DNA of 64,000 bases from a virus. The stretch spans positions 32,001 through 96,000 of the IMG/VR virus record IMGVR_UViG_3300034062_004313. The stretch is one strand, 5' to 3'. Positions 21,511-46,670 of this stretch are shown piece by piece (the stretch's first letter is position 1; each line of letters starts with the position of its first letter). The notes under the pieces were generated by a model, which was not told where the DNA came from, ran no database searches, and worked only from the letters and a program-made list of their open reading frames with translations. Position numbers and translations under genes: made by a program.

Positions 21511-22695
21511 TTATTTTTTAGCATCATATCCAAGTGACATGTACTTGCAGGAAAAGTTATGATTTTCATCTCTAATAACTATACCTTCTACCATATTATC
21601 TCTGAAGTAAGTTTCACATTCTTCTTTAATTTCTTCAATAGTGTTAAAAGTCTTATCGAAAACCAAATCTGTTATAGGAACATTTAATTCTGTAGTAATT
21701 CTTTTAAACTCTTCTTCTCCAAGCTTTATAGATTGGTCTTCATATTTACAAACATTAAAGAATTTAATTCCTACAGGAAGTTTAGCATGTGGATTGTTCT
21801 TGTTACCACTTCCTTTCATGTTTTGACCATAAATTTCACCCTGAAGTACTATGTTGACATTGTTTTTCTTACAATAAGATTCTAATAAATCAAGATATTT
21901 CATTCCATGTTTAACAAAATCACTGTCATTAGGTACTTCTTCGTAGAAATTTAAATCAGGCTTAGTCCAAAATAACACTTTTTCTAAGAAAGTTTTATTA
22001 CGTCTTCCTGTAACCTTTTTTGTAGATAGTGGTTTACCTTGATTACGAGAAGCAATTCCTTTTTTACCATCTTTATACCACTCTGTTATAGAGCTACCAT
22101 CAATTTTAACACGACCAATAAGTCTTTTAGGAAGAATCTTCTCAAAATGTTTAACTACATTATTAAAATTCTCTTCATCTGTTTTAACTACTCCATCTGG
22201 AAATTTAGTAGAGGCTCCACCTTTAATTCCAGCACCAGATTTATCATCAGGTTCTTCATATTTAGTAATTCCTAATTCTTGTGCTAAATCTAAAGTAGTT
22301 AAAGGTAGATTATGACCATGAGCAGTCATTCCTGTATAATCTTGAACTTCTTTATATTGTAATAATATACCATTACTATACACTGGAAATCCATCTCCAC
22401 GATGTAAATTAAACTTCTTAGCACGAATACGTCTTGGTAATCCATTTGTTTTTCCTAACATACTCTTGCTTTCATCTCCATTAGGACGAATGAACGATTC
22501 GAATAGTGGAATATCTGAAACACAATAATCAGGAAATATTAATACTGCTTTATCTCCAACTTTATAAATATCTTTTTGACTAACTAATTCATATCCAAAC
22601 TCTTCAATAGTGAGCAACTCTATCGAGTTGGCTTGTTCTTCTCCTTTAAATAAGGGAATCTTTTCTTTTATTATAACAATTTGTACGGCTTCCAT
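21511..22695 (-). CDS. ATP-dependent RNA ligase, DRB0094/Rnl5-like, with N-terminal OB domain
   Basis: KVGDKAV in the N-domain; motif I KIDGSS; ASRN; LQGEIYG; KFFNV; EGIVIR; CKYMS. Confidence 0.85.
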   Translation of the reverse strand: MEAVQIVIIKEKIPLFKGEEQANSIELLTIEEFGYELVSQKDIYKVGDKAVLIFPDYCVSDIPLFESFIRPNGDESKSMLGKTNGLPRRIRAKKFNLHRGDGFPVYSNGILLQYKEVQDYTGMTAHGHNLPLTTLDLAQELGITKYEEPDDKSGAGIKGGASTKFPDGVVKTDEENFNNVVKHFEKILPKRLIGRVKIDGSSITEWYKDGKKGIASRNQGKPLSTKKVTGRRNKTFLEKVLFWTKPDLNFYEEVPNDSDFVKHGMKYLDLLESYCKKNNVNIVLQGEIYGQNMKGSGNKNNPHAKLPVGIKFFNVCKYEDQSIKLGEEEFKRITTELNVPITDLVFDKTFNTIEEIKEECETYFRDNMVEGIVIRDENHNFSCKYMSLGYDAKK

Positions 22696-24387
22696 TATTT
22701 TTCGTATTTAGTTAATATTAAAATAACTCCTGTTAAAAATCCTGCTGGCATCCACCAAACAGCATATAATAATATCAACCACCAATTTCCTACTAAAGCA
22801 CTTAATACTATAGGAAATATCCATATAGCTATTATTATTAGTATTGATAATGTAATTATTATTGTTTTCATTCTATTTGTTTTAAAAGTTCTTCTATTTT
22901 ATCCATTACTTCTAACAATTCGTATATTTTTCCTGAAATAAAATCTGTACGTTGTAATGATTCTAAATATTCAACTCTTTGTTCAAGTTCTTCATACAAC
23001 TCTTTCATAATTCAAATTTCTTTTTAAATTTATCCCAATCTAAATCATCAAAATGATTCGAAACATCTTTTAATATTTCTTCAACATCTTCCCATTTTAC
23101 ATATTCTCCATCATGTTGTTCTTCCATTCCTGCTGAAATAGAGTCGAATTCTGTATTTACATATAAATCATATCTTTTCATAATACAAAGGTTTTAAAAT
23201 AAGATTAATACGGCAATTAATAAAAAAATCAGTAGGTTTTCCTATTTCCATACCCTCTTTAAAAACTAACCATTCTTTATTATTTTGACAATATGCTATT
23301 TCGTAATTATTTATTTTATATCCTCTATTAGGAACGTAATAATTTCCTCTGAATATAGGAGCATACTGTTCTTTAAGTAATCTCATAATTTCTCTTTAAG
23401 TTTATTATACACTGTATAAATACCTAAATCCTTAGCTTTATTTAAAGCAGTTAATGCAAATTGAATTTTTTCCTTTCTTACAAATTCAGAATTAGCTCCT
23501 GCTATGAAGTCTTCTATTGCTGAATTAGCTAAGTCATCTGTTTTTACAGGGTCAGTAAAATTATTGATTTTTATTCTCCATCCATAATTTCTAGCTTCTT
23601 CTTGTAAACTCATAATTAATGCCTCCAATTTAAATTTAAATCTCTAATATTAGTTAATGCAGAAGTGTAGTTTTCATAATTCTTCCAATCTCCTCCACAA
23701 TTATATACCACTCTCACTTGTTCTGTAGTCCATTCAGGAACTTCTTTTACAATACCATTCTCCCATCTATCTTCATAACCATCTGTACTTATTCCATCTT
23801 CTTCGAATATTGGTACAGAATTTCTATAATGAGAAGGGAGATAGTGTACTTTATCTCCCTTTTTAAGTTTTGCTATATCTATCATTTATAAAGATTTTAA
23901 ATAGAAATAAGTTTTAAACAATTGAAGTTTTCTTTTTATAGATTCATAGTATTGCATAGACTTAGACCATTCTGATTTAGCAGACATTTGTGCCATTTCA
24001 CCTTTAGTTTAAGCATATTTAATTGATTATAATAACTAAAAAATTAATCAAATATCCATTCAATTAACCATTTGTTGCTTTTGCGATTTATTATCCTATA
24101 TAATAATATCCACATCAAAACAGGCATACTTACTAAAACAAGTATTATTTTTAGTAAGCACCCAATAGCAATCATTGTTGCTTCCGAATAAAACATTTTA
24201 GTTTATTTATTTTAAGACCATTCCCACCAATTTGATTTTTTATGAACACTACCTTTTCTAACCTTTTTGTTGAAAAACCTCTTCCAGAATTTACCACATG
24301 GTTTAACAAAAAAACTTTGAGCAGGAGTATTTAAATTTTCCTTTGTTTTCTTTTTGTTACCTAAAAAGACTTTTAATTTATCTTCAT

Positions 24388-43343: not shown

Positions 43344-43949
43344 ATGATATATTTTATAGGAAACAAAGAACAAGATATAGTTAAGATAGGAAAAACTAAA
43401 AATGTTGAAAATAGACTTTGGGAAATAAATACTCACTGTCCTTATAAATGTGAGTTATTCTTAACTATAGATGGAAAAGAAGCTATTGAAAAAACAATAC
43501 ATGAAATGTTTAATCAATTTAAAATGAACGGTGAATGGTTTCAATTTTCAACTGAAATTCAAGATTTTATAAATAATCCAAAAGAAATAGTATTAAATCC
43601 TTTGTTTAAAGATTTTAATATAAATACTTCATATTATAATAATGAAGACTTAAAAATCGTTGAAGATTTATACAAATTGAAAAAATCCAATATTGAAATC
43701 TCTGAAATAACAGGATTAACTATACATCAAGTTAGAAGAATTATAAGAAATAATCAACTTGCTAGAAAATATAGAGAATATAAAGGAACAACTATTGTTA
43801 GTTCAGAACAAGACTTTCAAAGAAATAAGCGTAAAAAGTATAGAACTCTTTATAAAAAAGGGATAATTACTAAAGAAGTATTATTAGAAGAACTTGCAAA
43901 ATATCCAACTAAACGTAATTGTCCCAAAAATACAATTGAATATACCTAA
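43344..43949 (+). CDS. T5orf172/GIY-YIG-like nuclease with C-terminal HTH (putative free-standing homing endonuclease)
   Basis: MIYFI, VKIGKT, RL..I, EKTIH, GEWF; HTH SNIEISEITGLTIHQVRRII; lone plus-strand gene in a minus-strand region. Confidence 0.8.
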   Translation: MIYFIGNKEQDIVKIGKTKNVENRLWEINTHCPYKCELFLTIDGKEAIEKTIHEMFNQFKMNGEWFQFSTEIQDFINNPKEIVLNPLFKDFNINTSYYNNEDLKIVEDLYKLKKSNIEISEITGLTIHQVRRIIRNNQLARKYREYKGTTIVSSEQDFQRNKRKKYRTLYKKGIITKEVLLEELAKYPTKRNCPKNTIEYT

Positions 43950-44066: not shown

Positions 44067-44360
44067 TCAATCTTTAAAATAATCTTTTACTAAATCTCTA
44101 CCTGAATAATCTTGTCTTGAACAAGCATCATCTAAAATGTCATTTGGGCAATTTTCACAAAGCTTAGAAACAAGCTCCATATTCTTGTTACACAAATCTG
44201 ACCACAATACATACAAGTTTGTTCCCTTTAAAGAAGGAACCTGTTCCAACTTAATAGCAATTGGAATACTGTATTTTAAGTTTTCAGGAGAGAACAATTC
44301 CATAAGAAATGTCATTGCAACTGGATTTCCTTTTGCATAATTCATAATCATACCAATCAT
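44067..44360 (-). CDS. conserved phage hypothetical protein (likely start at 44360)
   Basis: YAKGNPVAMTFL...LKGTNLYVLWSDLC; the ORF-track extension to 44402 overlaps the ribozyme. Confidence 0.7.
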   Translation of the reverse strand: MIGMIMNYAKGNPVAMTFLMELFSPENLKYSIPIAIKLEQVPSLKGTNLYVLWSDLCNKNMELVSKLCENCPNDILDDACSRQDYSGRDLVKDYFKD

Positions 44361-44374
44361 AATAATAATTTTTG

Positions 44375-44443
44375 AGTTTGACATCATTAATGTTTCGTCC
44401 AAGTCTGGTCACAAACTGATTTTATACTCTTCTTGGCTGAGTT
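44375..44443 (-). ncRNA. hammerhead ribozyme, type I, G3:C8 variant with kissing loop
   Basis: AGUUU-GUGACCA-G(ACUUGGA)C-GAAAC-AUU AAU GAU-GUC^AAACU; upstream ACUC(AGCCAAGAA)GAGU loop is complementary to loop II. Confidence 0.7.
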
Positions 44444-45037: not shown

Positions 45038-45256
45038 TTATTTACCTTTGAAGTCTTCATCAAAACTACTATCAAATAAACATCCTAATGCAACACATAT
45101 TACTATTGTTCCCAACACACAATAAGCAGGATGTTGAGCCACTTCTCTGAAGCTGCCACCAAATAATCATGCAATAGCAGGAACAATCGAATACAAGAAA
45201 CAGTAGCATATAACGTATACCACTGTAAGAACCATAAAACGGATTAACTTTTCCAT
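45038..45256 (-). pseudogene. 72-codon two-TM membrane protein ORF interrupted by one in-frame TGA (45167-45169)
   Basis: MEKLIRFMVLTVVYVICYCFLYSIVPAIA*LFGGSFREVAQHPAYCVLGTIVICVALGCLFDSSFDEDFKGK. Confidence 0.55.
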
Positions 45257-45343: not shown

Positions 45344-45733
45344 TTACAACGGAAACTTAAACTTAAACCAACCAAAGGACTTAGCTCTAATAAAACATTG
45401 AGCTATACTAATATGTTCACAAGATTCATCTCTGAAACCTGTAATATGATTATCAACACCTTGTTCAGGTTTTATAGTAGTATAACCAACTTTTCGAACA
45501 TATCCACCACCATGTTTCTGTTCTACAATAAATGTAGTACCAACAGGAGATGTGAGAATATTAAAGAGATTCTTACTCTGAAAAGAATAAGTGTGGTCTT
45601 TAACATAATCAGAATTACTTAAAGAACGCTCTTCAATAGGACAATTATAATCTACATGAATAGAATAATACTTATCAATAACCTTATTGGCTTGATTAGC
45701 ACTAAGCTGAATACAGGAAATGAACTTTTCCAT
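45344..45733 (-). CDS. hypothetical protein (likely start MEKFISC)
   Basis: ORF track; A-rich leader directly after the hammerhead. Confidence 0.65.
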   Translation of the reverse strand: MEKFISCIQLSANQANKVIDKYYSIHVDYNCPIEERSLSNSDYVKDHTYSFQSKNLFNILTSPVGTTFIVEQKHGGGYVRKVGYTTIKPEQGVDNHITGFRDESCEHISIAQCFIRAKSFGWFKFKFPL

Positions 45734-45752
45734 TTTAAATATTTTATTGTTT

Positions 45753-45808
45753 TCTGTTTCGATGCTCAATTACATCATCATCAGCAAAGAGAATACTCTT
45801 TGGACAGA
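45753..45808 (-). ncRNA. hammerhead ribozyme, type III
   Basis: UCUGUC^CAAAGAG-UAUU-CUCUUUG-CUGAUGA-U-GAUG-UAAUUGAG-CAUC-GAAA-CAGA; all three stems pair. Confidence 0.88.
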
Positions 45809-45921
45809 TTAGCATATACTGCGGTTTCAACATGGGAATATGATGTCAAAATGATATTGTTTTGATATCAAATGAGTGATTCTATACCCTATTTGTACTC
45901 ATGTCAGTGCAAATTTGTACT

Positions 45922-45937
45922 TGTTTCACGTGGAACA
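45922..45937. promoter_or_regulatory. parS-like site (ParB/Spo0J binding)
   Basis: TGTTTCACGTGGAACA, 15/16 to the palindromic consensus TGTTTCACGTGAAACA; intergenic. Confidence 0.75.
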
Positions 45938-46023
45938 TTATATAATATCTACATGTATTAATACACTATTTATTAGATATTATCTAATTCAATTTAAAAT
46001 ATGCCGAGAAAATACAAAACCAA

Positions 46024-46068
46024 TTTGATATTATTCAACAATTGTTCATATTATTGAATAATATCAAA
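46024..46068. repeat. perfect 15-bp inverted repeat
   Basis: tttgatattattcaa-N15-ttgaataatatcaaa. Confidence 0.85.
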
Positions 46069-46104
46069 ATTAAGCTCTTTTTATGGGTGGATTTGGGCTG
46101 ATTT

Positions 46105-46134
46105 AAAAAAGGACAGGGATAAATATCCCCGTCC
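46105..46134 (-). terminator. intrinsic terminator after 46158..46670
   Basis: GGACGGGGAU-AUUU-AUCCCUGUCC-UUUUUU. Confidence 0.85.
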
Positions 46135-46157: not shown

Positions 46158-46670
46158 TTAAGGAGTCGGAACTGCATTCTCCTGCAATTCAGCAGTGGCA
46201 GTCACTTTCTTTTCCTTCTTTTCAGGAGTTACACCAGCCAAAGCTTGTGTCAAAGCAGTGATACCGGCAAGGTATTGGTCAGCCCTTTGCTTTTGAAGGT
46301 TACGTCCACGGCCTTTAAATGGGACATTTGTCAGCCACACATTAGGTGAGCGTGTCATTTTGCCAGCAGAATCGAACTGTGGTTTTGCCACATCGAACTT
46401 CATAGCACCTTCATACTTGCCTGTGGCATCATCATAACCCTTCAGGAATTCTTCAAATTCATCTTCACTGATGCGTACTTCTGTACTTTTTACCGGAATC
46501 CTTACGCCTGTAGGAGAAATATAATTCTCACTTGTAGCTTCCACCTCTTCACTGAGGATAAGAATTACGGTGTCTGCATTTACACCTGATTGAGTGTCAA
46601 TAGTTTCCACTTCAATTGTGGTCTTCCTCATACGGGACAAACCTGCTAATAGCTCATGTTTAATAGCCAT
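46158..46670 (-). CDS. hypothetical protein, GC-enriched, probably early/highly expressed
   Basis: 170-aa ORF flanked by terminators on both sides. Confidence 0.75.
   Translation of the reverse strand: MAIKHELLAGLSRMRKTTIEVETIDTQSGVNADTVILILSEEVEATSENYISPTGVRIPVKSTEVRISEDEFEEFLKGYDDATGKYEGAMKFDVAKPQFDSAGKMTRSPNVWLTNVPFKGRGRNLQKQRADQYLAGITALTQALAGVTPEKKEKKVTATAELQENAVPTP

Follow-up and report, generated by a model that had tools for sequence, protein, structure and literature searches.

A predicted extra-U type III hammerhead ahead of an orphan phage gene, and its relatives in other phages

Phages commonly encode self-cleaving ribozymes, whose function is an open question (PMC6155905, PMC6765202); phage hammerheads flank small genes and have been proposed to process long transcripts (PMC3088659, PMC6155905, PMC6765202). 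The closest described systems to the element reported here are the RF00008 type III hammerheads (PMC3088659, PMC6155905), with which it shares a three-way junction that is open at stem III, the core and the G10.1-C11.1 pair; like the bacterial and phage members of RF00008, it is intergenic, lies beside small genes of unknown function and has another candidate ribozyme nearby. Unlike them, it has a U after A9 and a conserved pair of loops (UAUU and AAUUGA).

An insertion at the identical place in the core occurs in natural ribozymes that cleave. A passage of PMC1636495 (citing De la Pena & Flores 2001) describes an extra A10 between A9 and G10.1 in the CChMVd (+) hammerhead, and the hammerheads of Penelope-like elements have an extra nucleotide at A9/G10.1 that is compatible with activity (PMC4209133). 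Whereas these are viroid and eukaryotic retroelement RNAs, the insertion here is a U and its carrier would be the mRNA leader of a DNA phage. Published alignments acknowledge insertions of 1-2 nt beside CUGAnGA (PMC10085705); no description of the A9/G10.1 insertion was found in the main text of Perreault 2011 (PMC3088659). The earlier note on this DNA had held that some natural viroid and satellite hammerheads tolerate an extra nucleotide at this junction, and the CChMVd (+) example in that passage agrees, as does the Penelope case.

The exchange of self-cleaving classes between similar locations was the premise for the discovery of pistol and related ribozymes (PMC10085705, introduction). 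Like the ribozyme-rich phage neighborhoods that contain RAGATH-1 (RF03152) and pistol (RF02679) ribozymes, the DNA analyzed here (the window, 64,000 nucleotides of a phage record in IMG/VR) has candidate hammerheads of two topologies 1.4 kb apart, and, at loci orthologous to it by the downstream gene (P0001), the type III hammerhead is replaced by a motif that resembles RAGATH-1 or pistol. Unlike in those neighborhoods, the pistol-like matches and one RAGATH-1-like match (in locus L008) are below the Rfam gathering scores, and the RAGATH-1 copy in the window has a G3-C8 core pair.

RiboJ, an engineered insulator, consists of a type III satellite hammerhead between a promoter and a ribosome-binding site, plus a designed hairpin. 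By analogy, the ribozyme in the window would trim a variable leader just upstream of a translation start and stay on the 5' end of the mRNA; unlike RiboJ, with its added hairpin, the arrangement is natural and its effect on expression is a predicted one.

The element and its orthologous copy

The element (Table 1) has the complete core by the definition that we used for comparison (PMC3088659, methods), that is, C3 U4 G5 A6 N7 G8 A9, G12 A13 A14, A15.1-U16.1 and H17. The pairs that flank the core are intact (1.1-2.1 C-G, 10.1-11.1 G-C, 15.1-16.1 A-U), and the strict consensus of an uninterrupted junction between A9 and stem II is broken by U45777 alone. The topology is that of type III, in which loops cap stems I and II but not stem III, both in the fold and in the alignment to a covariance model of phage relatives (R1, described below). 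The minimum free energy (MFE) fold of 45812..45748 (ViennaRNA) is the exact hammerhead three-way junction (-14.6 kcal/mol, z -1.8); in a 176-nt context, the MFE fold retains stems I and II, and stem III is lost to long-range pairing that has a low frequency in the ensemble. The gap to the start codon at 45733 is present as the earlier note had reported it, except that it counts 19 nt instead of 20.

Table 1. Coordinates of the features of the locus, in window positions
Feature	Position	Strand	Basis or remark
Upstream gene, 170 aa	46670..46158	minus	
Intrinsic-terminator-like hairpin, 10 bp, with T-run	46134..46111	minus	follows gene 46670..46158
Cluster of inverted and direct repeats on GATATTAT	45937-46073	none	19-nt arm pair 46024-46068
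Promoter-like site (putative)	45907..45879	minus	-10 part GGGTATAGAAT at 45889-45879
Predicted type III hammerhead ribozyme with extra U	45808..45753	minus	sequence, MFE fold, model R1
Stem III, 5 bp including A15.1-U16.1	45808-45804 with 45757-45753	minus	sequence
Predicted scissile bond, C17/C1.1	between 45803 and 45802	minus	GUC triplet, C17 = 45803
Stem I hairpin, 7 bp, loop 1 UAUU	45802-45796 with 45791-45785	minus	sequence, fold
Core box CUGAUGA (C3-A9)	45784-45778	minus	invariant in 32 relatives
Extra U at the A9/G10.1 junction	45777	minus	sequence
Stem II hairpin, 4-5 bp, loop with AAUUGA	45776..45761	minus	sequence, fold
Stem II pairs, 4 bp plus a possible U.G	45776-45773 with 45764-45761	minus	
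Core G12 A13 A14 (GAA)	45760-45758	minus	invariant in relatives
A-rich spacer, 19 nt, without Shine-Dalgarno	45752..45734	minus	ribozyme 3' end to ATG 45733
ORF P0001, 129 aa, orphan phage protein	45733..45344	minus	gene after the ribozyme
Terminator-like hairpin between the two ribozymes	45226..45200		
RAGATH-1-type (type I) hammerhead candidate	44443..44375	minus	RF03152

In AT-rich DNA, such an element might be a chance match to the hammerhead consensus: very many windows were scanned, so some random matches are expected. We scanned the 155,874-bp genome with a type III descriptor that allowed at most one inserted base and required stems of at least 4, 3 and 4 bp, and 45808..45753 was the only match. 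Whole-genome shuffles that preserve dinucleotides satisfied the relaxed descriptor in 2 of 150 cases and gave an equally good match, with stems as long, in 0 of 150. Shuffles alone are no guard against the look-elsewhere effect of scanning very many windows, so we relied on comparative evidence. The covariance model R1, which was built from the alignment of 32 extra-base phage copies with the window copy excluded, matches the window element over its full length with 58.8 bits (E about 1e-13). A second R1 match in the genome (G000 24314-24375; 18.7 bits) is in coding sequence and lacks GAAA; we rejected it as chance.

An orthologous locus, L137, in which the homologue of P0001 is 68% identical, has a hammerhead at the same site that scores 64.9 bits and ends 16 nt before the start codon (the ORF as called is over-extended through the ribozyme). 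The two ribozymes are identical at 42 of 56 positions, compared with 37% identity for the upstream intergenic DNA. All 14 differences are within stems I and II and retain pairing; they comprise six double changes and one change of G-C to G-U, that is, four double compensatory changes and the G-C to G-U change in stem I and two double compensatory changes in stem II, where the loop is identical. No change affects the core, the extra U or either loop, and the spacer is identical at 15 of 19 positions. The earlier note would have given up its assignment had the core positions varied in homologous phage loci; in L137, the core is kept while the stems change in a compensatory manner.

Relatives in other phages and the extra U

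An exact search of IMG/VR found six contigs, of which four are distinct; the pattern specified the core with its extra U, the sequence of stem II and the length of the loop, and left stems I and III free. In these contigs, stems I and III differ in sequence, all of them pair perfectly, and the flanking DNA is unrelated. After a wider IMG/VR search and a stem filter, about 42 distinct type III hammerheads of phages remained. In the alignment of 32 copies, 97% of the cells are paired and 18 of the 20 pairs have changed on both sides; 0 of 500 shuffles reached this level of pairing and no slid register comes near it. Part of this pairing is imposed by the stem filter; the outer pairs that the filter did not require pair equally well, and the exact-search contigs and the L137 comparison are free of this bias. 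Given dozens of covarying relatives, the score from a model that lacks the window copy and the compensatory changes in the orthologous copy, we judge the chance-match reading to be refuted by these sequence comparisons and give it hardly any credence. Instead, the sequence evidence (the core as read directly, the leave-one-out R1 match, the covariation and the L137 copy) identifies 45808..45753 as a genuine type III hammerhead with one extra U, as the earlier note had proposed; it is a known kind of element, and the locus adds a well-supported example of a hammerhead in a freshwater phage.

Certain loop pairs recur in the family despite changing stems: UAUU/AAUUGA (the class of the window copy) in seven distinct copies and GUGU/AAAA in eight. 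This is the pattern expected of a tertiary contact between loop 1 and loop 2; it would be consistent with such a contact and is not structural proof of it.

The placement of the family is also recurrent. The median distance from the 3' end of the ribozyme to the next ORF that begins with ATG (at least 50 aa) is 27 nt, the distance is within 60 nt in 29 of 42 cases, and the start codons belong to many unrelated genes. Because many copies are located only 7-50 nt downstream of the preceding ORF, the family members appear to be general processors ahead of cistrons, not markers of the start of a transcription unit.

In several single phage contigs, type III hammerheads occur in twos or threes, 400-5000 nt apart (L042:10420-11242, L005, L025, L053, L114 and L123). 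The arrays mix extra-U and insertion-free copies, and RF00008 reports the insertion-free ones only. Five near-identical stretches in two variants (L224-L228; Clostridia MAGs, Chitinophaga and a Mycoplasma MAG, all unrelated assemblies), found in prokaryote genomes with the pattern of the loop class, match the core and loops. They have no stem I, so we rejected them as hammerheads, and they give no clue to the host; contamination common to the assemblies or a mobile sequence that they share may account for them.

The frequency of the extra U was read from a less biased sample, in which the search pattern did not demand a U: among the 80 IMG/VR loci listed, 56 copies are stem-valid type III hammerheads, 32 of them with no insertion, 21 with an extra U and three with an extra A. 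Since the U is present in 21 of the 56 sampled copies and since the two forms coexist in single contigs (e.g., L005, L042 and L061), the extra U is a frequent natural form in phages. De la Pena and Flores reportedly found that a U at the A9/G10.1 insertion site accelerates cleavage.

The check that the earlier note had suggested, a search with the Rfam hammerhead models, came out negative: RF00008 has no match to the window either at its gathering score (48.5 bits) or at E<=10, and a search of the window and 15 loci with Rfam at the gathering scores gave no matches. Locus L042 serves as a control for this outcome; RF00008 assigns 46.7 and 33.8 bits to its two canonical copies and leaves its extra-U copy unreported. 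On the basis of this control, we attribute the miss to the inserted U; the fault is that of the model, not of the RNA. This is evidence that a single inserted base keeps Rfam-based annotation from reporting a sizeable fraction of the type III hammerheads in phages, and both the size of the extra-U subclass and this blindness are modestly new.

These observations also bear on the possibility that the inserted U leaves the structure dead or very slow, so that it would be a structured leader or a protein-binding site only. Core insertions usually harm hammerhead activity (PMC3088659, section 8), and the window copy is one that Rfam does not recognize; however, the miss is explained by the model, the sampled extra-U copies have intact catalytic bases and covarying stems, and the natural hammerheads with an extra nucleotide at the same site are active (PMC4209133 and the passage of PMC1636495). 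We therefore hold an inactive element to be very improbable.

The downstream gene and a possible exchange of ribozyme classes

Homologues of P0001 are 57-79% identical to it, with one distant homologue at 31%. The protein has no match in Pfam or PHROG; its AlphaFold2 model has a pLDDT of 90, and in the PDB Foldseek finds nothing at E<=0.001 and the best VIA-align Z is 3.7. Residues C31, C105 and H107 are invariant. Among viral and metagenome contigs, no related locus was confirmed by searches that started from P0001, P0002 or alignment A3, and blastn of the region against deposited phages gave no match.

Other self-cleaving classes occur at the orthologous loci. In L008 (78% identity to P0001), a type I hammerhead that resembles RAGATH-1 (L008:2729-2819) is located about 190 nt upstream of the gene; its core is canonical and its score of 30.6 bits is below the Rfam gathering score. 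The same locus has a pistol-like motif (L008:3598-3645; 27.5 bits, gathering score 34.5) downstream of the P0001 orthologue and directly before the next ORF. In L136 (79% identity), a pistol-like motif (L136:310-403) ends 17 nt before the ATG and scores 26.4 bits against the gathering score of 34.5. Farther upstream, set apart by an inserted hairpin that seems to be located between P1 and P2, are a hairpin that could plausibly be P1 and a pseudoknot of 6 bp. In six of ten distinct loci, no ribozyme is recognizable upstream of the P0001-family gene, so the gene does not need one.

As orthologues carry other self-cleaver classes in the same intergenic region, their sequences point to cleavage itself as the selected property. 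The orthologous swap of ribozyme classes is modestly new. It is possible, and we stop just short of calling it probable, that the extra-U hammerheads form an abundant subclass of their own in phages (roughly four in ten of the type III copies sampled), which has its own conserved loop pairs and is invisible to Rfam, and that three self-cleaver classes (extra-U type III hammerhead, RAGATH-1 type I hammerhead and pistol-like motif) are exchanged at one site directly ahead of the P0001-family gene. If so, cleavage as such, just before a start codon, is what is selected, and the P0001 site is a compact natural system for testing the function of phage ribozymes. With differing classes or none upstream of the gene, the family offers a natural comparison for effects on insulation, stability and translation.

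The window has its own second ribozyme candidate, of the RAGATH-1 type, 1.4 kb downstream of the type III hammerhead in the same string of genes. In a lenient Rfam scan of the DNA that follows P0001, it matches RF03152 over its full length with 52.5 bits (gathering score 56.3; E 1.5e-7). In its core, the usual C3...G8 is flipped to G3...C8, which is still a Watson-Crick pair, and, as is typical of the RAGATH-1 family, the loop of its 5' hairpin is able to base-pair with the substitute for stem II. Cleavage is predicted between 44380 and 44379; this point is 19 nt, and the 3' end 14 nt, from the ATG (at 44360) of a 97-aa ORF. When the whole genome was scanned for type I and type II hammerheads with the canonical core, nothing was found, and this copy was missed because of its G3/C8 core; RF00163, RF02276 and RF02679 gave nothing credible in the whole genome, and no other G3-C8 RAGATH-1 copies were found in IMG/VR. 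A natural G3-C8 copy of RAGATH-1 is modestly new.

Proposed role and genomic setting

We consider it quite probable, from the sequence comparisons, that the element is a functional extra-U type III hammerhead that would cut its leader after C17 with the help of a loop contact and leave an insulated message. The hammerhead would be transcribed within the leader of P0001, and the folding of its junction would be helped by a putative contact between the conserved UAUU of loop 1 and AAUUGA of loop 2. Self-cleavage after C17 (45803) would give an upstream RNA that ends in a 2',3'-cyclic phosphate and a downstream mRNA whose first nucleotide, 45802, bears a 5'-OH and opens the stem I hairpin, which stem II follows; these ends are dictated by hammerhead chemistry if cleavage occurs. 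After the cut, what had been the 3' strand of stem III would be single-stranded before the start codon, together with the 19-nt A-rich, unstructured spacer. Insulation would then consist in one defined 5' end and 5' UTR, whether the RNA came from the gene's own promoter or from read-through transcription, and this 5' end may alter the stability or the translation of the mRNA.

The most likely role is constitutive cutting of leader or intercistronic RNA. Insulation appears to be the best-supported consequence, because of the tight, recurrent placement before start codons and because the ribozyme classes are interchangeable. Stabilization by the 5'-OH and the hairpin, which the earlier note had suggested, is possible, and so is the opposite effect; which of them a 5'-OH would bring about depends on the RNases of the host. 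In Bacillus, the cleavage products of the glmS ribozyme are degraded through their 5'-OH.

By the same chemistry that insulation would use, the ribozyme might mainly lower or tune downstream expression, either because the 5'-OH is attacked by a 5'-3' exonuclease of the host or an enzyme of the RNase J type or because the retained scaffold hinders ribosomes; that the ribozyme is dispensable in many orthologous loci would suit a tuning element. However, a conserved, unstructured A-rich spacer beside the start codon looks made for translation, and the copies of the family are directly before the start codons of many unrelated genes; we consider tuning as the main role unlikely.

Less likely still, by a clear step, is that the locus is a mobile RNA or DNA module, in which cuts at 45802 and 44380 would free a 1.4-kb RNA that can be ligated or circularized or in which the 56-nt module itself spreads. 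Two ribozymes 1.4 kb apart on one strand and a phage-encoded RNA ligase would suit the first form. For the second, an identical 56-nt hammerhead is present at L001:3962-4017 and at L002:1130-1185 and L006 although neither flank is related between these contigs, which is what movement of the module from locus to locus would look like. However, a search by Perreault et al. for circular or spliced RNAs from paired phage hammerheads was negative (PMC3088659), the two ribozymes have a terminator-like hairpin between them, and the ligase gene is distant. Insulation remains our preferred reading, with an inactive ribozyme ranked marginally behind the mobile module.

The setting upstream of the ribozyme contains, where the earlier note had described a strong terminator, a strong terminator-like hairpin after the 170-aa gene. 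The note had also placed a parS/inverted-repeat region here: the inverted repeats are present, and the parS label found no support. To judge from their sequence, the GATATTAT repeats look like operators; they are partly conserved at L137:15-70. The motif AGTACAAAT, which is duplicated upstream, has no significant enrichment in the window. A promoter-like site precedes the ribozyme, as judged by a sigma-70-type consensus (the host is probably a member of the Bacteroidota, with other promoter rules), and its -10 part, GGGTATAGAAT, is shared with the DNA ahead of the L137 ribozyme. On the strength of this site and its shared -10 part, a transcription start roughly 70 nt before the cut is plausible.

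A Bacteroidota host is likely from sequence similarities: the terminase and portal proteins have distant counterparts, at 24% identity, in Flavobacterium phage FpV4 and crAss-like phages, and the spacer without a Shine-Dalgarno sequence fits such a host. The G+C content of the window is 26-33%, and its DNA is present in lake and freshwater metagenomes. Among the public runs that contain the window DNA, no RNA run is listed; in four DNA runs, the contigs are identical to the window with no variants, so population-level covariation is not readable from them.

Two further genes in the window are of note. The RNA ligase gene (PF09414, phrog_968; 21511-22695, minus strand) is 23 kb away; its product could matter for RNAs whose ends are made by ribozymes. 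A T5orf172/MUG113-domain gene (43344-43949, plus strand) is convergent with the string of genes that the two ribozymes punctuate.
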